Below, piece after piece: positions 535-60,654 of a DNA stretch of 64,000 nt. Source of the stretch: a virus. The notes beneath the pieces were generated by a model that saw nothing but the letters and a program-made list of their open reading frames with translations, was not told where the DNA came from and searched no databases. Position 1 is the stretch's first letter; each line of letters starts with the position of its first letter. A program made the position numbers and the translations under genes. The stretch is from the IMG/VR virus record IMGVR_UViG_3300045972_000071, positions 1 through 64,000 of that record. One strand, written 5' to 3'.

Positions 535-642
535 TAAGATAGTAAAGAGCCTCTCCTTTACTATCTATTGTTTGCTTTTATCTTCTTATCTTTTACGTGA
601 CAGGTTTCAGTCGGTCTAGTGTGACTGGAATCAGTGCTACTG
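535..642 (-). repeat. Inverted ~110-bp copy of a segment (19616-19725) inside the replication initiator gene
   Basis: The reverse complement reads cagtagcactgattccagtc(ac)actagaccgactgaaacctgtcacgtaaaagata..., near-identical to 19616 onward. Confidence 0.9.
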
Positions 643-656
643 ATATCCGCTAAGAG

Positions 657-1232
657 TTATCGCACCACGTTGCGTTTCGTCTCAGAACCTTTACTGATTT
701 CCGTATAGTGAGACGGGTCACCGTAACCACCATGCTTGTGAATACTACTATCTCCACCGGGTAGATTCGGTACGGGCACACCGGTCATTCCAATCTCTTT
801 CCATATCACGGTAATGGTTTTCAGCGTCTCACGGATTTCCTTAAAGATAGGATGGATCAAAGTCCTCCCCTTATCATCTTCATAGGCCATCGAAGCAACG
901 GATTTTGCAATGATCTTCATCTGGCAAAGCTGACCATATAAAGGTACAAGATGCATACCAATCCTAAACATGTCAGCTTCATCCAAATACCGATAGGTGC
1001 GGAATATCGTCTCCACAAAGGACTGTAGATACTGCGATTGCAGATCACACTTACCAGTCACGCGGGAAGCATTCTTGTAAACGCAGTCGTGCCCGATAGG
1101 GCACGCCGCGGGTGAGCAGTCCTGTATGCAATCCCAGGCAACAAGCTGTTTCCCCTCTCGGACTTCCCCTTTCTGCAAGGTGTTCGCTTGTATATTTAAG
1201 GTCGGTACAAAATCTACTTCATCGTCACGCAT
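657..1232 (-). CDS. Putative terminase small subunit
   Basis: 191 aa, directly upstream of terL on the same strand, RBS GGAGG. Called by position only. Confidence 0.55.
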   Translation of the reverse strand: MRDDEVDFVPTLNIQANTLQKGEVREGKQLVAWDCIQDCSPAACPIGHDCVYKNASRVTGKCDLQSQYLQSFVETIFRTYRYLDEADMFRIGMHLVPLYGQLCQMKIIAKSVASMAYEDDKGRTLIHPIFKEIRETLKTITVIWKEIGMTGVPVPNLPGGDSSIHKHGGYGDPSHYTEISKGSETKRNVVR

Positions 1233-1910
1233 AGTATACCTCCGGGAGTTATATTGTCTAGTACACTATCGCTTGTTGGGTTACGATGTCAATATATTTG
1301 AGTGGTGACGGAATTTTCGGACGATATACGCCTACGGGGTGAGGGGGGAACGCCAGGTGTAATCGGGAAATGTCAGCCATGTATGATATACACTGTTGGT
1401 AGTCATAATTCATCGAGGTCATTGACCAACTTCCAGTTTTCTGGGAAAAATTGAGAACAGGACCTGTCAGATCGCATAAAAATTTTGCAGTTGAGATAAA
1501 AGTCGGGGGGCTAAGTGCTTGAAATCACTACGTTTTTTCTAAGTCAATACATAAAAATGATTAAAAATTATTAAAATGAATGATTCTTTTGAGCATATCA
1601 GCATTATTAATGAACATTAACATGCATTTGAGCGTCAATTTTACATAAAAATCACGTCAAAAAAGCGTGATTGCAATGCATAGAAACATGCTCTAAAACG
1701 CTCAAATATCGCTTGCAAACGATTTTTAGCATATAACGCTTATCACTGTATAGAGTGAGATATTGACACGCTGAAAACGCTTTAAAATTGATGATAATAA
1801 AACGCTTGCAATATGCATTTAGTTCACGTATAAAGTAATTACATTTAACTGCTCTTTTAAAACTTAATAGCTTTTTTTGATTGCACTCGAAACGCAATAT
1901 TAAAAAAGCA

Positions 1911-2577
1911 TCACTCAAAAGATTAATAAACGCTTTCTTTCTTGCAATTAAAAAAATTCAAGTAAAGCGAGCGTGACTACTATGAAAACTACAACATTAA
2001 AGTCAATGAATTTGAGCAAAGAAGCATTCGAAGTATTGTTTTATTATGCTACTCTTTCGAATGTTTTCTATAGTTATGCTGCTGAATTGACACAAGAAGA
2101 AGTAGAAAAATGTCATTTCTCTGCTAACACGATTAATTCAAAGTTAGCTTACAGAAAGCAGTTAAACAATAAAGAAAGAAATGTTTTGATTAGAATTGAG
2201 ACTCAAGACATTTCAAACGTAGTACAAAGAAGCAGAGACATCACTAAATCAGATAAACTTAATAGAGCGTTAGCAGAATTTAGAACGCTCAATCAGCATG
2301 TTAAGTATATAAACGCTTTAAATGCAGAGTATTACGACAAAAGAACAAAAGAATATACTTTGATTAATGTAGATAACGCTTATGTGTTAAGACATTGTAA
2401 ACATAATGATTCGAAATTGCGTCACTTGTTTACAAAAGAAGTTACAGAAAAAAATGAGTTCAGATATGTAGAAAAAAACGAAGTCTCAATGTTTAAAGCA
2501 GAATAGTTTCAAGTTCTGAACATGTCAGAACTATAACTGAACATGTGAAAGAAAGCGTTTATTAATCTTTTGAGTGA
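1911..2577. repeat. Perfect 31-bp inverted repeat (1911-1941 / 2547-2577) flanking one gene, plus an outer bulged arm (1843-1859 / 2591-2609)
   Basis: tcactcaaaagattaataaacgctttctttc vs gaaagaaagcgtttattaatcttttgagtga. Confidence 0.92.
1982..2506 (+). CDS. Hypothetical pre-early protein with no Gly, Pro or Trp
   Basis: Long ORF in AT-rich DNA with a GG-free SD-like AAAGCGAGCG upstream. Alternative start at 1973. Confidence 0.75.
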   Translation: MKTTTLKSMNLSKEAFEVLFYYATLSNVFYSYAAELTQEEVEKCHFSANTINSKLAYRKQLNNKERNVLIRIETQDISNVVQRSRDITKSDKLNRALAEFRTLNQHVKYINALNAEYYDKRTKEYTLINVDNAYVLRHCKHNDSKLRHLFTKEVTEKNEFRYVEKNEVSMFKAE

Positions 2578-2699
2578 ATGCAGAAAGAAGTAAAAGAAAG
2601 CAGTTAAATTTATTCAAGAAAAGGATATGCTATGAATACCGAAACGGGCAGAACCGAAGAAACTACACGTCAAGCTAATAACATGCGGAGGACTGTATA

Positions 2700-2825
2700 A
2701 TGTACAATCACCGACACTTCCATCCCCGTAAGAATCGTTTTAACCGTAAAGAGTCTATGCTAAAAACGCTAATTATGGCGGCATACACAACCTTTGTTAT
2801 ATTGCTTATCTACTGCACCCAGTAA
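2700..2825 (+). CDS. 41-aa basic peptide with a C-terminal hydrophobic helix
   Basis: GGAGG RBS; MYNHRHFHPRKNRFNRKESMLKTLIMAAYTTFVILLIYCTQ; followed by a terminator. Confidence 0.5.
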   Translation: MYNHRHFHPRKNRFNRKESMLKTLIMAAYTTFVILLIYCTQ

Positions 2826-2830
2826 GAATC

Positions 2831-2863
2831 AGCGCATCTGCTACGGTGGATGCGCTTTCCTTT
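2831..2863 (+). terminator. Intrinsic terminator
   Basis: agcgcatctg-ctac-ggtggatgcgct followed by ttccttt. Confidence 0.6.
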
Positions 2864-3178
2864 GCCATTAAATCCGTGTCTGGTTGTGCCACTGACCCAC
2901 CCACTATCTTCATGCTGGCACCGCTCTGCTGGACGTGTACATGACCCATCATATTCCCAAGACTACTACAACGTGGCATACGTACGGACAGAGAGCGGCT
3001 GGACCGTGGATATGTACACGTAAAGCCCCACGAACGGCCCATTGCTAACGACTACAAGAACCATCCACTAACCCACCCATCCCGTACTCAATGGCTAACT
3101 ATTTTGAACCACGATGTTACAAATCGAATAAACCATGATATAGTCTATCTGTAGTTAAATACAAATTGGAGGTGCAAT

Positions 3179-3514
3179 ATGAGTGTGAACTTTTCGGTGG
3201 TCGTGGTTTTGAACCAGAAGTATGAAGAACAAGATGGTACGGAGACCGAGAACTTTGAGGTCTTGTCCAGCAAACTCGATCTTGGCAACTTCCGTGCTAA
3301 CCGTTTCATCTGTCCAATCAACTCACATGGCAACATCGACGACTTCGGTGAGCGCACCCTCACAACTGACGAGGACATCAACTTCTACATGAATGGTCTT
3401 ATGAAGATTGACACCCTGCAGACCGAGATTGCTTACCGTTACATCACTGCTATTCAGATGCGAATCCTTGGATGCACTGGTTCATCACTTGAGTTACACG
3501 TCTGCTGGAGCTAA
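3179..3514 (+). CDS. Hypothetical early protein
   Basis: RBS GGAGGT, promoter unit upstream. Confidence 0.7.
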   Translation: MSVNFSVVVVLNQKYEEQDGTETENFEVLSSKLDLGNFRANRFICPINSHGNIDDFGERTLTTDEDINFYMNGLMKIDTLQTEIAYRYITAIQMRILGCTGSSLELHVCWS

Positions 3515-3557
3515 CGAACAGAACAAGTGCCCGCAGACGCGGTAGGAGATATCAGCC

Positions 3558-3872
3558 ATGGTAGAGAAAACTCACAACCCATTCTTCCTCAAAATTTACA
3601 AAGCGATGTTTATCAATGGTAACGGTGGACTGTGCCGTTGGGGTTCATCAGCTTGGAACACAGCCTTTGGATATCGACACAAACTTCCACTGACTACCGA
3701 AGACTGTGGCACATCCTGGGCATCAATCTACAATGAAGATGGAACCCTCTGTATTGAGGTGCAACTGCTACCCATAGGACCGAAGGGAACAAGAAAGCAC
3801 CGAGTGACCACGTTCTGCAATAAATGTAAGACCTTCATTCCAGCGGGTAGAATCCATCAGCATAAGTGTTAA
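3558..3872 (+). CDS. Hypothetical early protein with a C-terminal CxxC...HxxxC Zn motif
   Basis: RBS AGGAG; CNKC...HQHKC. Confidence 0.7.
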   Translation: MVEKTHNPFFLKIYKAMFINGNGGLCRWGSSAWNTAFGYRHKLPLTTEDCGTSWASIYNEDGTLCIEVQLLPIGPKGTRKHRVTTFCNKCKTFIPAGRIHQHKC

Positions 3873-3887
3873 TCACTGGGTAGATCA

Positions 3888-3923
3888 TGGGCTGTGGGTC
3901 TCGGGATTCACGGCCCTTTCTTT
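3888..3923 (+). terminator. Intrinsic terminator
   Basis: gggctgtgggtc-tcgg-gattcacggccc-tttcttt. Confidence 0.7.
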
Positions 3924-4252
3924 ATGTATTCCTCTGCCACGCCCAGTTCATAGTTATTACCAATGACGGACCATCTTGTACTACTAAGCTAGACGCTTTC
4001 GTGGTCATATTCTAGTGGATGCTGACAATCCATTGATTAGCCACATTCTCTGCCACGCTTTGATACAAAGTGCTTGTTCTAATATGTCTAAATGATTGCC
4101 ACAGCTTACGAATGATGTGTCCAGCGGTAGTAATGGGTATATAACACCGATGAAACTGCTATTCTACTGAGATAAGCCCGTTTGAGTCCTGATGTGGCTG
4201 ACTGCTGGCTGTGGAATGAGTGCGAGACCGTCTGAATGTGGTGGACGTGAAC

Positions 4253-4297
4253 TCCTGTCCTGTCCTGTCCTGTCCTGTCCTGTCCTGTCCTGTCTTG
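4253..4297 (+). repeat. (TCCTG)8 microsatellite plus one degenerate unit
   Basis: Directly visible tandem repeat. Confidence 0.95.
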
Positions 4298-4699
4298 CCA
4301 TCCTACTCCTTTTGTGTCCTTTCTTGTCCACACTTCTATATCCATACGCTTCCTATACATTACTGCTCCTTTTACGTCCACTATTACTACATCCAACGGT
4401 ACTACTTACAAAGGGTTTACTGGTACTATTGCTAGTGGGTTTGTATCCTTTTCTTTGGTTGGCTCCTTTGTTCCGTTTTTGTCTGAATTATTATTCGGCT
4501 GGGTTCATTTGTTTGATTTGCTTGGAATTATTTCCGCACTCGGCATGGTTTTCTATTTGCATTTCCATTGCTGGGGTTTGTGCGTCCTGCTTGCTCTTGG
4601 TTAATTATATTTGTAGGTGTGTTGTTAGTTCTTGCTGAGCCTTATTGACCACTGTATTCTATATTTAGTAGTTCATCTTGCTGTTTGCGGAGGTTTCAG

Positions 4700-9886: not shown

Positions 9887-10417
9887 ATGGCAAAGCGCAC
9901 ACAAGCACCCGAGGCAGTAGTTGCAACACCCGCAGTTGACACAACATCCGCAGACGCATCAGTCGGCGCAGATTCCACTGACAATACAGTGAAAGAGCCC
10001 GAGATACCCGAAGCTCAGAAAGAGCCCGAAACTGATGTCATTCCCGCAGAGGCTTGCGAAGTCTGGGGTTCTTGCGATCAGAACAGCAAGGCTTGTCGGT
10101 CGTGTCCAGTTCTCGATCTGTGCAAAGCAAAGACTATAACCCTCAAGGGAAGCAAGAAAGCATCTGGCACTTCTACTCCCCGTGTCAAGCGTGAACTGCA
10201 GGAAGGTCTGTCGAAGTTCAACCTTGCACGAATCGGAACACGTTCTTCGGATCTTGATGCCGCTCTTGAAGAGTTCAAGACATACGCAGAACTGGCAGCG
10301 ATCTTCACACTGTCAACCGTCAAAGCACACATCAAATGGTTGGAAGCTAAACGCTCTGACCGCTGTCACTTGGTGACTGATGCAGAAGGTAAAATCCGCT
10401 TTGAACTTAACGCTTAA
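9887..10417 (+). CDS. Hypothetical protein with acidic N-terminus, Cys cluster and C-terminal HTH-like domain
   Basis: C-terminus resembles that of the 25269 protein. Confidence 0.65.
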   Translation: MAKRTQAPEAVVATPAVDTTSADASVGADSTDNTVKEPEIPEAQKEPETDVIPAEACEVWGSCDQNSKACRSCPVLDLCKAKTITLKGSKKASGTSTPRVKRELQEGLSKFNLARIGTRSSDLDAALEEFKTYAELAAIFTLSTVKAHIKWLEAKRSDRCHLVTDAEGKIRFELNA

Positions 10418-23074: not shown

Positions 23075-23467
23075 ATGAGACTAAATGTATGTAAGGAATT
23101 CACCTTTGCTGCCGCACACTCACTACCTGGTTATGATGGACCGTGTGCTAATCTACACGGACATGAATGGAAACTGGAAGTTGAAGTTTCCGGCGTAGTC
23201 AATGAAGATACCGGCATGGTGCTCGATTTTGTGAAACTGAAAAAGATAGTCAACCAAGAACTTGTAGATAAACTGGATCATAAACACTTGAATGATATCT
23301 TCGTTGTAATACCCACTGCTGAAATGATGGTGGGTAACTTTGCCGATATCATCAATCATGTATTTAACAATGAGAAAAAAGGGTTAGGTGTAAAGTTAGA
23401 GCGCCTTCGTCTATATGAAACACCAACGTCATTCTGTGAGTGGAAACGATCCAGTTGTTCATGCTAA
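23075..23467 (+). CDS. queD: 6-carboxy-5,6,7,8-tetrahydropterin synthase
   Basis: FAAAHSL...CANLHGHEW...GMVLDF...LDHKHLND...PTAE...LYETP. Confidence 0.95.
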   Translation: MRLNVCKEFTFAAAHSLPGYDGPCANLHGHEWKLEVEVSGVVNEDTGMVLDFVKLKKIVNQELVDKLDHKHLNDIFVVIPTAEMMVGNFADIINHVFNNEKKGLGVKLERLRLYETPTSFCEWKRSSCSC

Positions 23468-23483
23468 TATAAGGAGAGGTATA

Positions 23484-24137
23484 ATGCCTAGAATTTATTC
23501 AATTTTTCAGAGTGTAGAAGGGGAAGTAAACGCACGTGGTATCGGTGCAATGACTGTGTTCATTCGATTTGCGGGTTGTCACGCCACATGTACATTCTGT
23601 GATACAACGTATGCAAAGGATCCTGCAAGCGGGCGTGTAATGTCAGTAAGTGAAGTTATGGAAGAGGTATCTAAGTATAACTGTCCGAACGTCACTATCA
23701 CTGGCGGTGAACCTATGGAGCAGTATGACGAACTTTGTAACCTGCTTCATGCTCTGGATGCAAATCAGTATAATGTGTCCGTAGAAACTAACGGACTGCA
23801 TTCTTTCTGGCGCAGAAATGCACCGATGATACATGCAACCTTTGTTGTGGATATCAAGAATGAAGGATTTATGGCATTATCCCGTATTGTAAACATGGGG
23901 CTTACATCTTCTGACATACTCAAAATGGTAGTGGGCAGTGAAGCTGACTTTGCTGTGGCGTGTACACGAAAGAGAGAATTGCAAGAACGTGGTGTTAAAG
24001 CCAGATTCGCATTTTCTCCAGAGTTCGGGAAAGTAGATCCAGACAGGATTCTTTCTTGGATGAAGAAATACGATCAAAATGATGCTATCCTTAATTTTCA
24101 GGCCCACAAAGTGCTTAATTTGACAGAGAATAATTAA
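23484..24137 (+). CDS. queE: 7-carboxy-7-deazaguanine synthase (radical SAM)
   Basis: IFQSVEGE, FIRFAGCHATCTFCDT, ITGGEP, VETNG, QAHK. Confidence 0.93.
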   Translation: MPRIYSIFQSVEGEVNARGIGAMTVFIRFAGCHATCTFCDTTYAKDPASGRVMSVSEVMEEVSKYNCPNVTITGGEPMEQYDELCNLLHALDANQYNVSVETNGLHSFWRRNAPMIHATFVVDIKNEGFMALSRIVNMGLTSSDILKMVVGSEADFAVACTRKRELQERGVKARFAFSPEFGKVDPDRILSWMKKYDQNDAILNFQAHKVLNLTENN

Positions 24138-24196
24138 ATCTTGCATAAACTTCCTAAGTTATAATACTGTAATAATTATAACTTAGGAGGTTACTT

Positions 24197-24817
24197 ATGG
24201 GATGCAGTGTATTGGGTTGTACAAACCATGAATTTAGTACAGGGCATGGGGACAGAAAGAAAAGAACAGGTAAATGTAGAAAACATCACTATAATTTACC
24301 TAGTAGACACTTGACCAGTGATCCAAATATATATGTGATAGATGGTCCTATATGCAGGATAACGTGCCATAAAAAAGATAACTCTATCGCAGGTTATGCC
24401 ATAATAGATACAGAAGATATGGAAAAATGTATTCCTTATAAATGGGGAATAACTTCGGATGGGTATGTAGTAAACGGTAAAAATCAAATTCGCCTGCATC
24501 ATCTAATTATGAATCATATTCCAGATAAAAATCACCCTATAGATCATAAAAATAGAATAAAATTGGATTGCAGAAAAGAGAATATGGAATTATCCACATA
24601 TTCTAAAAATAATGTGAATAGGGATTTAAAAAACAATACTTCCGGTCATAAATGTGTTTATTGGAATAAACACGCTAAATCTTGGGATGTAAGAATAACT
24701 AGGAATAAGATATGCACTCAATTAGGGTACTACAAAACTCTTGAGAAAGCCATAGAAGTTAGGGATACTTTTTATATCCAGCTTCATAAGGTATTGAACT
24801 TAACTGAGACTAACTAG
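24197..24817 (+). CDS. HNH-AP2 homing endonuclease whose tail is the original QueE C-terminus
   Basis: LHHLIM...IDHKNRIKLDCRKENM, AP2-like SGHKCVYW; ends QLHKVLNLTETN. Confidence 0.85.
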   Translation: MGCSVLGCTNHEFSTGHGDRKKRTGKCRKHHYNLPSRHLTSDPNIYVIDGPICRITCHKKDNSIAGYAIIDTEDMEKCIPYKWGITSDGYVVNGKNQIRLHHLIMNHIPDKNHPIDHKNRIKLDCRKENMELSTYSKNNVNRDLKNNTSGHKCVYWNKHAKSWDVRITRNKICTQLGYYKTLEKAIEVRDTFYIQLHKVLNLTETN

Positions 24818-24955
24818 CTGAAATTGCAGGTCCATTTATTTATTTCACTACCGAAGAAAATAAGTTGAACAGGGAATTAAATATGTGCTATATTTTAAAC
24901 ATCGAAGCACAAAACACGAACCCTACAGATTCATATCTTATGAAAGGAGAATCCA

Positions 24956-25231
24956 ATGACAAGAAGAGAACTGATTAGCGCCGTAGCTGAACAGACCAAA
25001 CTGACTAAATCTGATGTGGAGCGAGTATTGTACTCAACATTCGACAAGGTCATTTCGGGACAGCTTGCGGAAGGTAACACAGTGGCTATCAATGACTTCG
25101 GTAAGTTTGAGCCGAAATTGAAAGCCGCTCGCACTGGTCGCAATCCCGCAACGGGAGACACACTTGAAATTTCAGAAAAAATGGCACTGAGCTTTAAACC
25201 AGCATCAGCACTCAAAAACCTGATGAACTAG
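24956..25231 (+). CDS. hup: HU-family DNA-binding protein
   Basis: MTRRELISAVAE...FGKF...ARTGRNPATG...FKPASALK. Confidence 0.93.
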   Translation: MTRRELISAVAEQTKLTKSDVERVLYSTFDKVISGQLAEGNTVAINDFGKFEPKLKAARTGRNPATGDTLEISEKMALSFKPASALKNLMN

Positions 25232-25268
25232 GTTCATCACAACCCAATTTCCTAAGGGGGAAATAACA

Positions 25269-25844
25269 ATGATCGCATCCGCAAAGATTGACCTCACTGA
25301 ACTGAAAGCCGCTGTCAAAGACCTGAACTCTTCTGGTCTGATTGAAGCAACCATCAAAACTGTCGGCGTAAGCAAAGAAACCCTGGCTCAGGCATTTGTT
25401 GAAGCCTGCGACTCTCTGACCGATGATAACTTCAATACCGTAACTGTTGTTGACGATGTACCTACTGCTATCGGTGCAATGTACCAGACTCTCACAGCAG
25501 AAGAAGTTGCCGAGGAAGAAACTGTGAAAGAAGCCGCAAAAGCAAAAGCCGGTAAAGAGCCCAAAGCACCGAAAGAGCCCAAAGCACCGAAAGAGCCCAA
25601 AGCACCGAAAGAGCCGAAAGAGCCCAAAGAAAAGAAAGAAATCCCGAAAGATGCATTCGGCTCCGTACTCGGATCGAAATCTGCCGCAATGAACGCTCTG
25701 ATCGCCGCTGGTACTACAATCGAAGATATCATGGCAAAAGCCGGGGTCACCCGTACTTCTGCTCTGAATCACATCAAGTTCATCGAAAAAGAACGTGGTG
25801 TCGTTATTACCCGTGATGGTGATAACGTGTCCGGCAAGAAGTAA
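25269..25844 (+). CDS. Putative nucleoid-associated protein with KEPKAP repeats and a C-terminal HTH
   Basis: H1-like repeats; TIEDIMAKAGVTRTSALNHI. Confidence 0.6.
   Translation: MIASAKIDLTELKAAVKDLNSSGLIEATIKTVGVSKETLAQAFVEACDSLTDDNFNTVTVVDDVPTAIGAMYQTLTAEEVAEEETVKEAAKAKAGKEPKAPKEPKAPKEPKAPKEPKEPKEKKEIPKDAFGSVLGSKSAAMNALIAAGTTIEDIMAKAGVTRTSALNHIKFIEKERGVVITRDGDNVSGKK
25554..25631 (+). repeat. Coding 18-bp tandem repeat (aaagagcccaaagcaccg)x3 plus 9-bp half units
   Basis: Directly visible. Confidence 0.9.
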
Positions 25845-25909
25845 TCTGTTCACATATTAATCTAAACGGAGTCGGCATGTAATGTGCCGACTCCATTCGT
25901 GGAGACTCT

Positions 25910-26488
25910 ATGAACCTGAAACTAGCTGAAAAACATCTGAGAAACTTGCTGATCGAAGGTTTAGGTCTTGACCTTACTGATCCTAACTTAATGGATACAC
26001 CCTCCCGCATCGCTAAAATGTACACCAAAGAACTGTTTCACAATGTCGGGGAAGAATACCCGGCAGAAGAACTGCGTAGTTTTCCCAATGATAATAATTA
26101 TAATCAGATCGTAATGGTCGATAATATACACTTTGATTCCATGTGTTCACATCACTTTATGCCGTTCTCCGGTAAAGCATGGTTCTTATACATTCCCGAC
26201 AAAACTCTTGCAGGGGTGTCTAAATTACCACGTCTTGTTGAGCATTATTCTGCTCGTCCTCAGCTTCAAGAAAACTTGTGTCACGAAATACTCAACAGAT
26301 TTATTGATGTTGTTCAGCCGAAAGGTGCCATGCTTGTTATGCGGGCAATACACGGGTGCATGTCTTGTCGGGGTGTTCGTCAATACAATAACACTGGAAT
26401 GATATCATCTGCTTTGTATGGTTCTTTTGAACAACAATCTACCCGAGAAGAAGCAATGGGACTCATTGCACTATCCTCACATCAATAG
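25910..26488 (+). CDS. folE: GTP cyclohydrolase I
   Basis: DTPSRIAKMY, SMCSHHFMPF, GVSKLPR, RPQLQE, HGCMSCRGV. Confidence 0.96.
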   Translation: MNLKLAEKHLRNLLIEGLGLDLTDPNLMDTPSRIAKMYTKELFHNVGEEYPAEELRSFPNDNNYNQIVMVDNIHFDSMCSHHFMPFSGKAWFLYIPDKTLAGVSKLPRLVEHYSARPQLQENLCHEILNRFIDVVQPKGAMLVMRAIHGCMSCRGVRQYNNTGMISSALYGSFEQQSTREEAMGLIALSSHQ

Positions 26489-26496
26489 GAGATACA

Positions 26497-27108
26497 ATGG
26501 ATTCCCCTTACATTCTCAAACCTGCTGAGAATCGCACCGAAGCCGAAGTAAAGTATGGTAATCACTTTGAAAGAAATGTATACTTGAAGGGTGAGAAACT
26601 TGATGCCCGTGCCGCACTGCGTTATGCCATAGCTTCTGCTTACATAGAAGAAGGTATGAATGTTCTTGATATAGGATGTTCTAACGGATATGGTTCTGCT
26701 CTGTTGACCTCTAAAATAAATTATACAGGTATTGATTATGATGCTAATATAATTACATTAGCGAATGAACTGTTTGCCGATGATAATCATTCCTTTGTAT
26801 GTTGCAAAGCACAAGAGTTTCCAATGACAAAACGGTATGATGTAATCATAGCTTATGAGTTTTTGGAACATATTACAGATGGTGTTGCATTTGCCCAGGA
26901 GTTAAAGAAACACTGTAATCATTTATTTTGCTCTGTACCGTATAATGAGAAACCTGGGTTCTGGGGGGAGCATCACGTAATACACCGACTGATTGAAAAA
27001 GATTTCCCTGGATTCAGTTACAATTACATTTCATTTGAAGGTACATTGCTAGACGCACCGGAATATATTGATGGTTCAAATCTCATGTTATTACATTGGA
27101 GTAGATGA
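26497..27108 (+). CDS. Class I SAM-dependent methyltransferase
   Basis: VLDIGCSNGYG, YTGID, YDVIIAYEFLEH, SVP. Confidence 0.88.
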   Translation: MDSPYILKPAENRTEAEVKYGNHFERNVYLKGEKLDARAALRYAIASAYIEEGMNVLDIGCSNGYGSALLTSKINYTGIDYDANIITLANELFADDNHSFVCCKAQEFPMTKRYDVIIAYEFLEHITDGVAFAQELKKHCNHLFCSVPYNEKPGFWGEHHVIHRLIEKDFPGFSYNYISFEGTLLDAPEYIDGSNLMLLHWSR

Positions 27109-27124
27109 TGATTTATACCAATGT

Positions 27125-27205
27125 AAAGCGGCAAGAGAATTACATGGTGAATATGCTGTCCTAAACAAAATTCAGTTATTGAGGAGAAGTACATGCAAAA
27201 AATAA
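27125..27205 (+). pseudogene. 3' remnant of a deleted HNH-AP2 endonuclease gene
   Basis: Reads KAARELHGEYAVLNKIQLLRRS, matching the end of the 43761 HNH (AKELHGEFAVLNKIPLIRRR). Confidence 0.8.
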
Positions 27206-28326
27206 AAGTCGCATTGGTGGGGGTCGGCAACTGTGCATCCTCTCTTGTTCAAGGAGTCAGCTACTACTCAATGAAACAAGAATCCAATATACCTGGTATT
27301 ATGTTCCCTGATATTGGCGGATACAAACCTTGGGACATTGAGTTTGTTGCCGCATGGGACGTTGACTGTAGAAAAGTAGGAGAACAACTAAGGGACGCCA
27401 TCTTTGCTAGTCCTAACTGCTGTCGCTTCTTTCATTGGGAAATTGATGATAACTGCATTGTCAGAAAAGGTCCTGTTCTTGACGGCGTTGCACCTCACAT
27501 GCTTGACTACCATGAAAACATTCACTTTGAACTAGATGATAGTCCTAATGATGATCTGGAAGAAGTTAAATGCATTCTGCGGGAACGTGAAGTGGACGTT
27601 GTTCTCAACTACTTGCCAGTAGGAAGTAAACTCGCTACTGACTTCTGGGTAAGAGCCTGTGTGCAGGCGAGAGTACCGCTTGTGAACTGTATACCAGAGT
27701 TTATTGCTTCTGATCCAGTCTATGAGCGTATGTTCGTTGAAGCTGGTATTCCTATCATTGGGGATGATATGCGTTCACAAGTTGGTGCAAGCGTTCTATC
27801 CCAAGTATTGCAGGAACTTGCATTTGATCGCGGGTGTCATGTAAAGTTTCATCAGCAGATAAATGTTGGGGGTAATACCGACTTTGCAAATATGATGGAT
27901 AATAAGCGTATCCGATCAAAGAAGATATCCAAAGAGAATGTTATACGTTCTCAGAACGATATCAGGGGAATTGAAGCACCGAAAGATTCTATCTATGCCG
28001 GCCCTTCTTCATTCATTCCCTACTTGAAAGATAATAAAGTTGCATACATTCGCATGGAACTGGAGGGATTCGGTGGAGCACCTATTGAAATCGACTGTAA
28101 ATTATCTGTACAGGATTCTGAAAACTCTGCTGGTATTGTTATTGACGCCATTCGTTATCTTAAAGTGGCACATGAAATGGGAATATCCGGAGCGTTACGG
28201 GGACCTTCAGCATGGACACAAAAGACACCACCACAGCAGATGCAATATCGGGATGCTATGGAAGAATGCAAAGCCCTTGCGGAAAGGAGATATACCGAGT
28301 GTACGATAAATCAGGTAAAAAAGTAA
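27193..28326 (+). CDS. ino1: myo-inositol-1(3)-phosphate synthase
   Basis: VALVGVGNCASSLVQG, NYLPVGS, GDDMRSQVGA, NVGGNTDFANM, SKKISK, GPSSFIPYLKDNK, DSENSAGIVIDAIR. Confidence 0.95.
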   Translation: MQKIKVALVGVGNCASSLVQGVSYYSMKQESNIPGIMFPDIGGYKPWDIEFVAAWDVDCRKVGEQLRDAIFASPNCCRFFHWEIDDNCIVRKGPVLDGVAPHMLDYHENIHFELDDSPNDDLEEVKCILREREVDVVLNYLPVGSKLATDFWVRACVQARVPLVNCIPEFIASDPVYERMFVEAGIPIIGDDMRSQVGASVLSQVLQELAFDRGCHVKFHQQINVGGNTDFANMMDNKRIRSKKISKENVIRSQNDIRGIEAPKDSIYAGPSSFIPYLKDNKVAYIRMELEGFGGAPIEIDCKLSVQDSENSAGIVIDAIRYLKVAHEMGISGALRGPSAWTQKTPPQQMQYRDAMEECKALAERRYTECTINQVKK

Positions 28327-28721
28327 TTCAGTCCTTTGATCTTGACGGTGTGATCTTCATCAATGGAAATATACCCGGACTAAGACCTACTGTACATGAT
28401 ATTATTATCACTGGAAGATCCTTCGAAGAAGCAGAAGGAACTTACTGGGCATTAAAAAATGTAGGTATAGATAATCGGGTATATTTCAATCGTCTGCTGT
28501 TCGATGAAAAGACTAGAATCACATCGGGACAGCATAAGGGACGCACTCTCCGCACTCTCATAAGCGAAGGACATAACATCGTCTGTCACTATGATGATGA
28601 TGAAATTCAGATAGCGGAGATCAGCAAATATGTGTCAATACCAATCATTCACATTAAACATGAACTCACTGAGAAGGAGAACATTCGTCATGACCAAGAA
28701 AAAGATAGCAATCCTGTATAG
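28299..28721 (+). CDS. HAD-superfamily phosphatase
   Basis: FDLDGV, ITGR, K, HYDDD; GTG start after AAGGAG. Confidence 0.82.
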   Translation: MYDKSGKKVIQSFDLDGVIFINGNIPGLRPTVHDIIITGRSFEEAEGTYWALKNVGIDNRVYFNRLLFDEKTRITSGQHKGRTLRTLISEGHNIVCHYDDDEIQIAEISKYVSIPIIHIKHELTEKENIRHDQEKDSNPV

Positions 28722-29526
28722 CGGGGGATTAGACAGCTTCATCATGTACAATATGGCAAAGTTTTATCATCCGGGCGATGAAATTATTGCTGTATACTTC
28801 GATCACGGCGCTTCCTACTGTAAGCGGGAGATAGAAAAACTCCCCGACTTTGTGCAAGTACGCAAGCTCGACTGGCTCGATGAAACCCACACTACTGTTA
28901 CACAACCAGGTAGACGTGAAGGTGCAATTATGATACCGGGACGTAATCTGGTGTTTGCTACCGCACTCGTTTGTCAAGAACTACCTGACGAACTTTGGAT
29001 TGGTGCTCTACACGGTGAGACACATGAGAAGGGTACGGACAAGAACTACACGTTCCTTGCTAAGATGAATGAAACCCTTAATTATGTTGTCGGTCCTTTC
29101 CGAAACAAGGTTCCTATGTACTGTAAGTTCCCCCTTGCTGATTTGAAGTTGGATAAACTCGATTCAGTTAAGTGGGCACTCACTCATGGAATTAGTCGTG
29201 AACAACTGATGCGTACTCGCTCCTGTCATGATGGTAGTACAGATAAGTGTGGTGCTTGTATTCAGTGTGTTAAACGATGGGCTGTGTTCGGGGCATGTGG
29301 ATTCACCGAACTGTATGATACACATCCACTTGATTCGGAATTCGGTAAGAAATTCGTATCTGACCTGGTCAAGTGTGAACTTGGGGAAGATGATTACTAC
29401 GGAGAAGAGACAAGAGCGGAGATAATGCCACATCTACATTTCATGGCTAACACATTCCCTTCTCTCTTCGAGGAAGAAACACTTGCTGATATCCGTAGAC
29501 TACAAAATCTGAGTAGGGATTACTAA
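28690..29526 (+). CDS. queC: QueC-like ATP-dependent enzyme (divergent 7-cyano-7-deazaguanine synthase family)
   Basis: YSGGLDS PP-loop, IPGRN, TRSC...CGACIQC; the usual YPDC motif reads GTDK. Confidence 0.85.
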   Translation: MTKKKIAILYSGGLDSFIMYNMAKFYHPGDEIIAVYFDHGASYCKREIEKLPDFVQVRKLDWLDETHTTVTQPGRREGAIMIPGRNLVFATALVCQELPDELWIGALHGETHEKGTDKNYTFLAKMNETLNYVVGPFRNKVPMYCKFPLADLKLDKLDSVKWALTHGISREQLMRTRSCHDGSTDKCGACIQCVKRWAVFGACGFTELYDTHPLDSEFGKKFVSDLVKCELGEDDYYGEETRAEIMPHLHFMANTFPSLFEEETLADIRRLQNLSRDY

Positions 29527-29573
29527 TGGATAGTTCAATCTTTCTCGACTCTTTATTATTCTTGACTTTATAG
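29526..29573 (+). pseudogene. Orphaned original 5' end of the TGT/DpdA-like gene
   Basis: ATG GAT AGT TCA ATC TTT CTC GAC TCT = MDSSIFLDS, coupled to the queC stop codon (TAATG). Confidence 0.88.
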
Positions 29574-29620
29574 AATGCATGATATAATATCCTTCTAACA
29601 TAAATAATTAGGAGGATATT

Positions 29621-30403
29621 ATGTCAGAATGTATTTGGGAAGGTTGCACAGAGGATGGTAATAATAAAGGATACTGTAAAAAACATTATGATAAATGGTA
29701 TTACAAATTGTGTAGAGAGAAAGCCGGACTAGCCCAATATACAAATCAAAATCCCATAAGAAAACGGACAAAAATAACCGGTACATGCAATGTGGAGGGA
29801 TGTGACTCACAAATTCACTGTAAGGGTGTTTGCTACAGGCATTATCTACATCTACGAAATCATGGAGAAATTAGGGAGAGAACTAGAATAACTCCTAATG
29901 ATTTTATCATTGACGGCGACACCTGTAAAATAGGTTGTTATAACATCTACTGTGATCTAGTAGGTTATGCTTTAATTGATGCCGAAGATGTAGATAGATG
30001 CAAACCACATAAATGGTATTTTGAAGTAGATGGTTATGTGAGTAGTACAACAGCAGGAAGTTTGCACCATTTTATATTAGGCACTAAACCTAGAAGTGGT
30101 GTATTTCCAGATCATAAAAACAGAGTATGCCATGATAATAGGAAAGATAATTTAAGAATTGCAACCACATCACAAAATGCCTGTAATTCTAAAATAAACT
30201 CCCGTAATAAAACAGGATATAAGGGTGTTTACTTTAACGGAAAAGAGTTTGTAGTTTATATATGTTCAAACGGTAAAAACAATCTTGTGGGTAAGTACAA
30301 TACGAAGGAGGAAGCGGCTATGATTTACAACCAGAAAGCCAAAGAGCTTCACGGAGAGTTTGCATTTCAAAATACTCTCAAAGAGAGTGTGGTCATTGGA
30401 TAG
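29621..30403 (+). CDS. HNH-AP2 homing endonuclease
   Basis: C/H Zn motifs, LHHFIL...DHKNRVCHDNRKDNLR, TGYKGV...EEAA..YN..AKELHGEFA. Confidence 0.88.
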   Translation: MSECIWEGCTEDGNNKGYCKKHYDKWYYKLCREKAGLAQYTNQNPIRKRTKITGTCNVEGCDSQIHCKGVCYRHYLHLRNHGEIRERTRITPNDFIIDGDTCKIGCYNIYCDLVGYALIDAEDVDRCKPHKWYFEVDGYVSSTTAGSLHHFILGTKPRSGVFPDHKNRVCHDNRKDNLRIATTSQNACNSKINSRNKTGYKGVYFNGKEFVVYICSNGKNNLVGKYNTKEEAAMIYNQKAKELHGEFAFQNTLKESVVIG

Positions 30404-31262
30404 TTCAATATTCCTCGATAGTGGTGCTTTCTCCGCAATGACATCTGGACAGACCCTAGATGTGTATGCCTACATTGATTATGTCAATGAGCATAAGGAG
30501 TTCTTTGATCTGTATGCTAACCTTGACGTAATAGGTTCTGCTGAAGGTACATGGAAGAATCAAAGGATAATGGAGAAAGCGGGACTTAATCCATTACCTG
30601 TCTATCACATCAATGAAGATCCTAAGTTTCTTGCGATGGCAATGGAGTATGATTACTTTGCTGTTGGGGGAATGGCAAGATCGAGTTCCGCTTCATTGCA
30701 GTTCCAAGTAGATGAAATATTCTCTATCATCTGCCCGAAGAGCAACGACTATTTTCCTACTCATAAAATACATGGGTTCGGAACTACTAAACCAAGTATC
30801 ATGGTCAGCTACCCCTGGTACTCTGTTGACTCTTCTTCATGGGTTAAATATGGTCTGTACGGTATTGTGCTGATACCCCGATTCTTTCACGGTAAGCCTA
30901 CATACAATAAGCCACCTATGACTGTTGTTATGTCGAACAGATCAAAAGCAATCGGAGATCAACTCCACTTTGCAAACATTTCAGCAATGGAAAAGGAAGC
31001 TATCCTTAACTACTTTGCTGAGAAAGGTATCTCTATAGGAGAATCTTACATCGTCAATGTTGAAGCAGGGCACGAACTGCTGGACAATGAAGTCTGGATA
31101 AACAAAGAGAAGACGAAAGTGGAACAGATTTGTGAGTACGGTCTGATAAATAATCATGTAGCCCGTGACCATGCAAACTTGCTTTACTTTCTTGACCTTG
31201 AGAAGTTTCAGCAGAAGTGGCCATGGCAGTGGAAAAAGAAATCAGGGAGATTAGATATATGA
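30396..31262 (+). CDS. dpdA: TGT-fold DNA 7-deazaguanine transglycosylase (DpdA-like)
   Basis: FLDSGAF, LDVIG, PVYH, AVGG, KIHGFG, SVDSSSW; lies in the que cluster; TTG start inferred. Confidence 0.8.
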   Translation: MDSSIFLDSGAFSAMTSGQTLDVYAYIDYVNEHKEFFDLYANLDVIGSAEGTWKNQRIMEKAGLNPLPVYHINEDPKFLAMAMEYDYFAVGGMARSSSASLQFQVDEIFSIICPKSNDYFPTHKIHGFGTTKPSIMVSYPWYSVDSSSWVKYGLYGIVLIPRFFHGKPTYNKPPMTVVMSNRSKAIGDQLHFANISAMEKEAILNYFAEKGISIGESYIVNVEAGHELLDNEVWINKEKTKVEQICEYGLINNHVARDHANLLYFLDLEKFQQKWPWQWKKKSGRLDI

Positions 31263-59235: not shown

Positions 59236-60654
59236 TTATGCCATCACAACTACACGATACTGACCTGCTGTTGGGGCGACCGAGAAGTTCAGAGTTAATT
59301 GATTGACTGTATTAAGAACACAGTCAACGGCTACTTCTGCCCACGGAGTTGCGGTCTCATAAATCTTATATGTCAAATCTCTGGTATTCAAACTATGAGT
59401 TACCGGAATTGATGTAGTAGCACCATCTCCGATTGTAGCAGAGTATTTGACAACTGTACCAGTGTTTGTAGTTGCATTCGGGGTAATAGATAATGCTGTT
59501 TGCATCTCAGCAACGGTTAGTGCTTTTGCATCCGCTAACGCACCTGTATTATTACCTACAAATGTGTTCGCCGCTAACTGCTGAAATTTTGCAAAAGTTA
59601 CCGCATGTGATGCGATAGTTAATGCCGATGAACCTGTAACATCACCAGTATGGTTAGCGTTCTGATTCTGCAATGAGGCAATCGTCACACCACCATCTTT
59701 CAGCAGTTTACCTGTGGTACCGTTGTACACTGCAATGTAGTCCGTAGCACCAACAGAAGTCGGTCCAAGAACTACACCAGATAGATTACGCTCAATACTG
59801 TTCCATTGTGCGCCTACTGTGGCTTGATTACCAGATGCCGTACTATCCGTCTTACACATCAACATGTCGCCGGCGTCAACAGCTAGACCACCTGCACCAC
59901 CTATAAGACCAGCTACTGATACGACATACATATCACCAGCGCTGGCTGCGGGGTAGTTGGGGTTTGCAGAGCAGTCCAGTACCCCCTTATAAACCAATGC
60001 GTTGGCTGCGGCAATTAATGTATCTGCATACACCTTAACTGCGTTCTGTGTTGGGACAAGAACGTCACTTGTCCCTAATGCGGTGTTAGTTGAAAGATAG
60101 GAAGCTGGCATTGCTCCGATATCGGAAAGAACAGTAGCATGAGGTACACTGGTGATACCTGTTGATGTCCATTTTGCATATAGACCAGATGTTGCTGTTC
60201 CGTTGACTTGGACAGCATTCGTAGTGAGTATACCAAACGTCAAAGCAGACTGTTTCGTATCAGCATAAGTCTTAGTCGCTTTCGCAGATGGTACCGTATC
60301 GTCCGATGCACTGACCGATGTTAAATCATTATCAATCAGCAGTGTTGTGACATCTCCCGCAACACGACCGACAATGCTATTCACTGGGATCGTCAAGGCA
60401 TTAGGAACACCAGTAGTTGCCGCGGCAAACAAAATGGACTGGGGCGTGTACAAAGCCTTCATTACTGCGGTGGATAAATCAGGAGCACCGCCCGACCCAG
60501 CCCATAGTGTACCGTTCCAACAATAAAATGTTTTGTCAGAAGTGTTGAAATATATCTGGCCCTCACCAGGTGTGCCTGGTGCTGATGCACTTCCGTGAAC
60601 AACTGCATTCTTTAACTGATTTTTATTGAGGTCTATCTCTGTTAAAAATTTCAT
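59236..60654 (-). CDS. Tail fibre protein
   Basis: GQIYFNT, VPSAKA.KTYAD repeats, YKG...GDMYVVS, HSLNT. Confidence 0.75.
   Translation of the reverse strand: MKFLTEIDLNKNQLKNAVVHGSASAPGTPGEGQIYFNTSDKTFYCWNGTLWAGSGGAPDLSTAVMKALYTPQSILFAAATTGVPNALTIPVNSIVGRVAGDVTTLLIDNDLTSVSASDDTVPSAKATKTYADTKQSALTFGILTTNAVQVNGTATSGLYAKWTSTGITSVPHATVLSDIGAMPASYLSTNTALGTSDVLVPTQNAVKVYADTLIAAANALVYKGVLDCSANPNYPAASAGDMYVVSVAGLIGGAGGLAVDAGDMLMCKTDSTASGNQATVGAQWNSIERNLSGVVLGPTSVGATDYIAVYNGTTGKLLKDGGVTIASLQNQNANHTGDVTGSSALTIASHAVTFAKFQQLAANTFVGNNTGALADAKALTVAEMQTALSITPNATTNTGTVVKYSATIGDGATTSIPVTHSLNTRDLTYKIYETATPWAEVAVDCVLNTVNQLTLNFSVAPTAGQYRVVVMA

Follow-up and report, generated by a model that had tools for sequence, protein, structure and literature searches.

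Genome Organization and Composition of the GG/CC-Free Tract

We analyzed the first 64 kb (64,000 nt, hereafter the window) of an 87,617-nt phage record in IMG/VR (IMGVR_UViG_3300045972_000071), in which a 1,112-nt tract contains neither GG nor CC dinucleotides. Genome-wide counts given here were obtained from the whole record. The tract is located at the divergent junction of two gene blocks (Table 1). The early block occupies the + strand from approximately 1.97 kb to 53 kb and includes helicases, a family A polymerase, a recombinase and a cluster of 7-deazaguanine genes, while the late block occupies the - strand from 53.5 kb round to position 1232 and includes tail, capsid and portal-side genes, terL and a terS-like gene. 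The product of the latter had no match in PHROGs or Pfam. An initial annotation of the sequence had stated that the tract starts abruptly beside terS and heads the early region, and the gene map agrees, as the tract comes first on the early strand and lies next to the packaging genes. The last ~124 nt of the record overlap its first ones, with at least one mismatch, indicating a circular assembly of ~87.5 kb that was cut inside terL; the "linear" label of the record in IMG/VR hides this circular assembly, in which terL is intact. No matches to the tract or its open reading frame (ORF) were obtained among 50,697 phage records by megablast, blastn or tblastn, and a search of 185,579 species genomes retrieved no relative. 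The genome has no identifiable tRNA genes, and a search against Rfam returned a single match, which was below threshold.

The last GG before the tract, at 1509-1510, is the end of a run of six G residues (G6 run), and the next GG or CC occurs at 2623-2624. Given the base counts of the tract (A452, T332, G173, C155), 48.5 GG and CC dinucleotides would be expected and none was seen (Poisson probability of zero, 8.9e-22). The second-longest gap between GG/CC sites in the entire record is 68 nt, and for the other dinucleotide classes the longest gap anywhere is at most 343 nt (CG). Within the tract, GC was seen 49 times and CG 30 times, compared with 24 expected for each. These dinucleotide statistics bear out the initial annotation, which had reported that GG and CC are absent while GC and CG are common, and had estimated a G+C content of about 29% and an expectation of 40-50 GG/CC sites. 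The measured G+C content is 29.5%, vs. 42% for the genome. GG/CC is not depleted genome-wide, with observed/expected (O/E) ratios of 0.94 and 1.03. The tract comprises ~470 nt of non-coding DNA, a single ORF and a 31-nt inverted repeat that brackets the ORF.

A Protein Family That Lacks Glycine, Proline and Tryptophan Within Tracts

The ORF encodes a 174-aa protein which, as the initial annotation had noted and translation confirmed, contains no glycine, proline or tryptophan (G/P/W). Based on the use of these residues across the genome (12.1%), the probability of finding none in 174 aa is 1.7e-10, and the next poorest ORF of at least 100 aa has 5.5%. A profile search of 1.84 billion representatives retrieved 53 clusters of this family, of which 27 are devoid of G/P/W and 26 contain them at 1.4-12%; this split is by protein content. 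The genome itself encodes a paralogue with ordinary use of all three residues, and two family members are present in the complete relative G001 and three in G005. In an alignment of the family, one column has P in 11 of 22 unconstrained rows and another has G in 14 of 22, while the 28 G/P/W-free rows have T/K/S/A or E/T/A/K at these positions instead. Because homologues and the paralogue located outside tracts use G/P/W and those inside do not, the constraint, judging from these sequences, acts on the DNA and not on the protein. The 26 clusters and the paralogue thus sustain the earlier view that the constraint overrides coding. Free use of G/P/W by homologues had also been named as a finding that would count against the initial proposal; it was found in these 26 clusters and the paralogue but not in the remaining 27 clusters, a pattern that points to a constraint at the DNA level.

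An AlphaFold2 model of the protein (predicted local distance difference test score, 94) has two long N-terminal helices forming a hairpin and a C-terminal helix-turn-helix with a beta wing. The structures matching this model were weak matches (Foldseek E of at least 0.3; VIA-align Z of at most 5.7), yet all of them were winged-helix DNA-binding domains. The protein had no Pfam or PHROG family, and no hit of a sequence profile search of the PDB was better than E 0.19. Look-alikes from the Atlas (Aq_aa04; score 0.95 with 164-167 features in common) were below the score bar and were not used. On the basis of the predicted fold, the protein is probably a DNA-binding regulator rather than a mimic-type inhibitor. 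The 27 G/P/W-free clusters would represent a natural example of functional proteins built from 17 amino acids.

The Tract Is Conserved in Related Phages

Relatives were identified by searching with the terS-like protein. IMG/VR yielded four distinct ones at 53-60% identity, and metagenomes added six with weaker similarity. The initial annotation had proposed looking for GG/CC-free tracts in related phages, and all four relatives at 53-60% identity carry one, with lengths of 1054, 1248, 1144 and 1067 nt and with 0, 1, 0 and 2 GG/CC sites, respectively. In each of the four, the tract starts directly after a conserved run of six or seven G residues and encodes an ORF weakly related to that of the window (18-28% identity). 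Among the weaker relatives, L011 (48% identity, partial match) has a relaxed tract with approximately five sites in 1.4 kb and L012 (33%) has 429 GG/CC-free nt at the start of its contig. No tract was found in L009 and L014 (34-39%), and L010 and L013 were left out of this comparison because their upstream DNA was too short. The sequence at the right border of the tract is not conserved. This border lies within an ORF in L006 and comes after a terminator-like hairpin in L001 and L002. Since this border is neither conserved nor tied to gene borders, the conserved quantity appears to be the length measured from the G run.

GG/CC Sites Are Evenly Spaced in the Rest of the Genome

We analyzed the spacing of GG/CC sites in the other 86.4 kb after removing the tract. 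The longest gap is 68 nt, compared with 116 nt in first-order Markov (Markov-1) simulations (minimum of 40 simulations, 87 nt), and there are 130 gaps longer than 40 nt, compared with 264 ± 14 in the same simulations. When trinucleotide frequencies were preserved (Markov-2), the deficit of long gaps had a z of -8.4, the largest of the ten dinucleotide classes. The evenness was observed only for the duplex word, as GG alone and CC alone were spaced as expected; each therefore fills the holes of the other. Next to the Markov models we used synonymous-codon shuffles within 79 ORFs, taken from an uncurated greedy list, which keep both proteins and codon usage. The shuffled sequences hold more GG/CC than the real genome, and they had more gaps in every size range, with 202 ± 9 vs. 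130 observed for gaps longer than 40 nt, 80 ± 6 vs. 36 for those longer than 50 nt and 31 ± 4 vs. 9 for those longer than 60 nt. Their longest gap was 102 nt (minimum of 60 shuffles, 82 nt) vs. 68 nt. In the class control for these shuffles, CC/GG was the most extreme (z -9.4), and the remaining classes apart from CA/TG ranged from -2.7 to +3.1.

The same evenness was found in two relatives, the complete G001 (z -7.0) and the 54-kb G002 (z -4.9), in which no other class was below -2.8 and the longest GG/CC gaps are 73 and 75 nt. Across the three genomes, Markov-2 simulations or synonymous-codon shuffles have 2-5 times as many long gaps as the real sequences. Selection, acting in part at synonymous sites, keeps GG/CC sites no more than ~70 bp apart in this clade. 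Evenness of GG/CC was absent in three other phages having DpdA, the DNA transglycosylase of 7-deazaguanine systems: Iggy (z +1.6), CAjan (+1.0) and RHph_N17 (-1.5). We found no description in the literature of a cassette lacking a dinucleotide, or of a modification word that is evenly spaced.

Borders, Promoters and Repeats of the Tract

The borders were compared in five phages, those of the window and L001, L002, L006 and L007. All five have conserved sequence over the ~100 bp that precede the G run, the alignment reading gggAAAAATT..GACAGGTC..GAGATA..GGGGGG, and this non-coding element could be the terminase recognition or cleavage site. The first 21 nt of the tract show almost no variation among the window, L001, L006 and L007, and L002 has a more divergent version (CTTAAGTCGTTGATTTCATTGC). 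A boundary word consisting of G6, TTAAGT and TTGAAATCATTA also occurs in four unrelated, tract-free IMG/VR phage contigs of 49-59% G+C, and was absent from the 185,579 species genomes. In L034 it sits between head and tail genes, and in the L034 group its 22-base version is too long to be due to chance. No relatives of terS or of the ORF family were found in the contigs that carry it. We considered whether the boundary word is a sigma-54 or sigma-70 promoter and dropped the idea, as by eye it fits either poorly.

Besides the sigma-70-like match returned by the promoter scan, a better promoter was recognized by eye, with TTGCAA at 1804-1809 and TATAAA at 1827-1832 separated by 17 nt. Of the 33 copies of the word AACGCT in the genome, 8 are on the + strand of the tract, usually as AAACGCTT, vs. 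0.4 expected. Across the five tracts no 8-mer is commoner than AAACGCTT (12 copies), which often has TTGCAA or TTGACA next to it and might be an operator, an iteron or an UP-like element.

The two flanks of the ORF that contain the 31-nt inverted repeat have a duplex energy of -61 kcal/mol (z -8.1 vs. 30 shuffles). The two untranslated ends of the message might pair into a 31-bp duplex; alternatively, the DNA between the arms may be able to invert. In L002, a 39-nt pair brackets a 66-aa ORF (z -7.5). Pairing of the message ends was rejected as a rule for the family, being weak or absent in the four other units (z -2.7, -2.1, -0.8 and -0.3). The first GG after the tract, at 2623, belongs to the Shine-Dalgarno GGA of the next small gene.

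Depths of Logan unitigs were obtained from contigs of two public runs rather than from raw reads, and are means per unitig. In run X1 the depth is 21-29 over 591-4243 vs. 13-16 on both sides, and a similar rise covers about 1336-4272 in run X2. The rise could reflect a terminal repeat, an origin or strains that share the region; as it reaches beyond the tract and consists only of means per unitig, we drew no conclusion regarding a terminal repeat. In both runs the arms of the inverted repeat are exact break points of the unitigs, as expected of a 31-mer graph.

7-Deazaguanine Genes and Other DpdA Phages

The early block contains all of FolE, QueD, QueE and QueC of the preQ0 pathway, with Pfam matches to GTP_cyclohydroI (1e-48), PTPS (5e-33), Radical_SAM (1e-10) and QueC (4e-12). 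The DpdA-like gene is separated from its start by an HNH gene. By tblastn its product matched 191 phage records at 30-39% identity, with E down to 1e-33, which are annotated as DpdA or queuine tRNA-ribosyltransferase; the Pfam TGT model did not match it. From these similarities, the protein is a divergent member of the DpdA group of TGT-family DNA transglycosylases. The complete relative G001 has a DpdA as well (68% identity).

In a study of such phages, the words read by phage DpdA proteins are 2-3 nt long and nearly every copy is modified, the words being GA in Iggy and GA and GGC in CAjan (PMC10484667). We therefore analyzed the Pseudomonas phage Iggy (MN029011) and found that its window 60001-60600 contains 13 GA/TC sites vs. 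73.6 expected (O/E 0.18, with a genome mean of 0.80 and a standard deviation of 0.15), the lowest value of any dinucleotide class in any window. This window is right-terminal and just upstream of early genes, and CC/GG is enriched in the terminal region. The right-terminal ~700 bp of Iggy (59901-60628), which are the most GA/TC-poor part of the genome, include two G9 runs and one C6 run, and GA/TC is also depleted approximately 2-fold in the first 1000 nt.

Proposed Function of the Tract

GG/CC is banned from the tract, the ban is conserved and acts on the DNA, sites elsewhere are evenly spaced, and the genome has the deazaguanine gene set. From these observations we infer that GG/CC may be the word of the phage's own 7-deazaguanine system and that the tract, probably the first DNA to enter the cell, stays unmodified. 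We consider this a plausible account, with the balance close to even but tilted slightly toward doubt. The tract would be a self-contained immediate-early cassette, in which promoters and an end structure accompany a single gene for a small winged-helix-like protein. The conserved element and the G run are located between the terS-like gene and the tract, a place where cos or pac sites are usually found in lambda-like arrangements. If packaging were to start at the conserved element and run into the late genes, the tract, lying on the early side of the probable terminase site, would be packaged last and would leave the particle first. GG/CC would be the target context of a DpdA-type guanine exchange. 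Selection for sites no more than ~70 bp apart would ensure that DNA throughout the genome carries the mark, and the ban would leave the cassette alone as ordinary, unmodified DNA. Such plain leading DNA could be read at once by the unmodified transcription machinery of the host, and, as long as no other phage DNA has entered, modification-dependent nucleases would find no target. One such nuclease is GrwAB, which restricts 7-deazaguanine phages and whose escapers map to dpdA (PMC12137116). The even spacing could thus be explained by a protective mark being wanted everywhere, and the ban by a need to keep one stretch unmarked. In T7, approximately 850 bp of DNA enter the cell before the remainder is drawn in by transcription, which is a comparable length. 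A more detailed version, in which GG/CC occurs at least every ~70 bp for marking and a 1.1-kb unmarked "ignition" cassette enters first and makes a DNA-binding protein that opens the next stage, is offered only tentatively and seems to us rather doubtful in its entirety.

Several observations weigh against this account. The DpdA words known are GA and GGC rather than GG in any context, and the tract does not avoid GA, which occurs 76 times vs. 70 expected. The depletion of GA in Iggy is partial, non-coding and a single case. No word-free tract was found in CAjan, where the minimum GA/TC O/E is 0.48, or in the Rhizobium phage RHph_N17, and GA/TC is not evenly spaced in Iggy (z +2.3) or CAjan (z -0.6), indicating that neither feature comes automatically with DpdA. 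The initial annotation had suggested correlating the tract with dpdA, and both are present in this genome and in G001, while CAjan and RHph_N17 have DpdA and no tract. With regard to spacing, the synonymous shuffles were based on an uncurated list of ORFs, and CA/TG also deviated in their class control (z -6.6). With regard to the physical end, the assembly is circular, the contig depths are ambiguous, and TerL had no relative of known packaging type among the 50,697 phage records. Finally, 1.1 kb of unmarked DNA would in turn be open to attack by ordinary restriction systems.

The initial annotation had listed three possible pressures behind the ban, namely a CC or NGG protospacer adjacent motif (PAM) with the protein as an anti-CRISPR (clustered regularly interspaced short palindromic repeats) candidate, a 7-deazaguanine modification set in a GG context, and some other host defense targeting GG/CC. 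The second fits best of the three given the evenness of GG/CC outside the tract, GG itself being only a presumed modification word, and the other two have lost ground. If a host defense reads GG/CC, be it a type I-F CRISPR system with a CC PAM, Cas9 with an NGG PAM or a two-letter nuclease, and if the DNA entering first is the only vulnerable part, as in T5, any PAM in it would be a weak point; repeated escape by PAM mutation could then have stripped the 1.1 kb that enter first, and the encoded protein might switch the defense off. The avoided word is an exact dinucleotide on both strands, as CC and NGG PAMs are, and the length of the tract is conserved irrespective of gene borders, the tract of L006 ending inside an ORF. 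Murciaviruses escape a type I restriction-modification (RM) system when their leading region lacks its motif (PMC12455610). However, GG/CC is not depleted genome-wide, and outside the tract selection at synonymous sites keeps it evenly dense. A host PAM or nuclease word should have the reverse effect, unless modification masks the sites. A host PAM or nuclease word would explain the ban and not the spacing, and a self-modification word therefore fits better. The predicted winged-helix-like fold (Z of at most 5.7) resembles DNA-binding domains, through weak matches, and no known inhibitor. The host species of Iggy often carries CC-PAM systems, and the terminal region of the Iggy genome is enriched in CC/GG and poor in the phage's own DpdA word GA/TC. 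Taken together, we regard a host defense as an unlikely source of the ban.

Alternatively, GG/CC may be read by another component of the phage, such as a different DNA mark, a protein that coats or condenses DNA by docking on this step at regular intervals, the machinery of replication or packaging, or a phage nuclease that does not cut DNA bearing the word, with the cassette kept free as a terminal repeat, an origin or a region that needs to be accessible. Evenness of the duplex step irrespective of strand is consistent with any double-strand reader, the 20-fold enrichment of AACGCT in the tract is as expected for iterons or operators, and in run X1 the unitig depth is raised around the tract. 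Tracts of 1.05-1.25 kb beside a probable packaging site are also close in length to the terminal repeats of Iggy, reported to be 1091 bp (PMC10484667). On the other hand, no candidate protein was identified, and the rise in depth, known only from unitig means, runs 1.6 kb past the tract. We also considered whether tract length equals tail length, a 2546-aa late protein at 1.5 Å per residue being about as long as 1112 bp at 3.4 Å, and rejected this since G001 has a 2127-aa homologue and a 1067-bp tract; the comparison involves two genomes and a protein without family match. Some other reader within the phage thus appears improbable to a similar degree as a host defense. A mutational process, such as attack by a cytosine deaminase specific for CC on both strands of a single-stranded or exposed genome end (CC and GG changing to TC/CT and AG/GA), might account for the A+T richness of the tract and its sharp borders at a possible DNA end. 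Such a process is very hard to reconcile with an ORF that remains open, is conserved as a family and has a confident predicted fold, with a G6 run that survives at the border in all five phages, with tracts reaching 0-2 sites although their neighbors are only 53-60% identical, or with even spacing elsewhere, which needs selection. We consider it highly improbable.

Should GG/CC prove to be the phage's own modification word, it would follow that such a word can be read from sequence alone, being banned in the first cassette and evenly spread elsewhere, and modification specificities could be predicted for uncultured phages. It would also reveal a cost of hypermodified DNA, in that part of the genome must stay plain, and a way round modification-dependent defenses such as GrwAB. 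The idea of a leading region would then extend from the loss of single sites to the rewriting of a whole gene without three amino acids.

Comparison With Known Systems

One close likeness is to the first-step-transfer region of T5 and BF23, a terminal block of first-expressed genes kept free of recognition sites, and T5-like phages are sensitive to restriction or CRISPR only through sites in this region (PMC10644984). In both cases a region lacks a candidate nuclease word, here with zero GG/CC in 1112 nt and a presumed reader, and in both the block is followed by a non-coding, repeat-bearing stretch, here at 2857-3178. The T5 block, in contrast, spans ~10 kb within a long terminal repeat and is free of certain 4-8-bp sites of particular hosts, whereas the tract described here is 1.1 kb, lacks a whole dinucleotide at the expense of three amino acids, and belongs to a genome in which the word is evenly dense elsewhere. 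The conserved length of 1054-1248 nt and the terminator-like hairpins at the tract ends of L001 and L002 are indirect hints of a T5-like staged entry, and the place of the tract beside the probable terminase site is suggestive of a physical end. By analogy, a leading end, staged entry, and escape from modification-dependent attack or readability by the host would form a coherent chain, each link of which is conjectural.

In Murciavirus (Autographiviridae), only motifs in the first-injected, leading region decide sensitivity to the type I RM system Mme2I, and natural isolates as well as escape mutants lack them in this region (PMC12455610). Unlike the present case, a single host-specific bipartite motif is involved, its loss does not constrain coding, and DNA modification by the phage itself plays no part. 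The DpdA systems of Iggy and CAjan share the gene set (FolE, QueD, QueE, QueC and a DpdA homologue), which in the present phage lies beside the clamp and polymerase genes, and a terminal early-control region of Iggy is depleted 4-5-fold in its own word. The differences are that the word implied here, any GG, is not among the known DpdA words, that the DpdA-like protein is only 30-39% identical to the named ones, and that extra inositol-phosphate synthase and methyltransferase genes are present. Depletion of CRISPR PAMs and avoidance of restriction sites also result in under-representation of a short word. Known cases, however, are weak and genome-wide, while here the avoidance is absolute, local, sharply bounded and opposite to the genome-wide trend; rather than being neutral or depleted elsewhere, as PAM avoidance would predict, GG/CC has an O/E of 0.94-1.03 and long stretches without it are selected against.

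Other Features of the Locus

Table 1. Features of the tract, its surroundings and related loci. Positions are those of the window unless a contig is named.
Feature	Position	Strand	Remarks
terL	2-496, continuing across the record's ends	-	ORF after the terS-like gene; match to terminase large subunit phrog_9
Putative small terminase gene (191 aa)	657-1232	-	First gene of the late operon; named by position alone
Spacer between late operon and tract	1233-1510		Ends in G6 run 1505-1510
21-mer CTAAGTGCTTGAAATCACTAC, left edge of tract	1511-1531	+	Directly after the G run
GG/CC-free tract	1511-2622		1112 nt, 29.5% G+C; dinucleotide scan
Sigma-70-like promoter match, into ORF	1771-1798	+	Promoter scan
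Inverted repeat, 5′ arm	1911-1941	+	31 nt, perfect; repeat search
174-aa ORF without Gly, Pro, Trp	1982-2506 (ATG to stop)	+	Alternative GTG at 1973 gives 177 aa
Inverted repeat, 3′ arm	2547-2577	+	31 nt; 41 nt past the stop codon
First DNA past the tract	2632-2856	+	Small ORFs 2632-2700 and 2700-2825; terminator-like hairpin 2831-2856
Paralogue of the tract ORF	9887-10417	+	Ordinary Gly/Pro/Trp; family profile match E 2e-14; ~8 kb from the tract
7-Deazaguanine cluster	23075-31262	+	QueD, QueE, FolE, methyltransferase, inositol-1-phosphate synthase, QueC-like, DpdA-like (Pfam); DpdA-like protein at 30360-31259
Boundary word elsewhere	L034 5071-5097; L037 599-625; L036 (contig end); L039		IMG/VR contigs

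Both flanks of the tract are rich in GG/CC, with 18 sites per 100 nt at 1301-1400 and at 3001-3100 vs. a mean of 8.6, and L007 has 25-28 per 100 nt just past its tract. The non-coding stretch at 2857-3178, past the first terminator, is C-rich and carries ACCCACCCA-like repeats, and a short tandem repeat is present at 4244-4306. In the late block, the 2546-aa protein mentioned above, which has no PHROG family, is encoded on the minus strand at 68092-75732 of the genome (4095-11732 of L003). This protein may serve as a tape measure or be some other giant component of the virion, and its 2127-aa counterpart in G001 is 25-45% identical in pieces.

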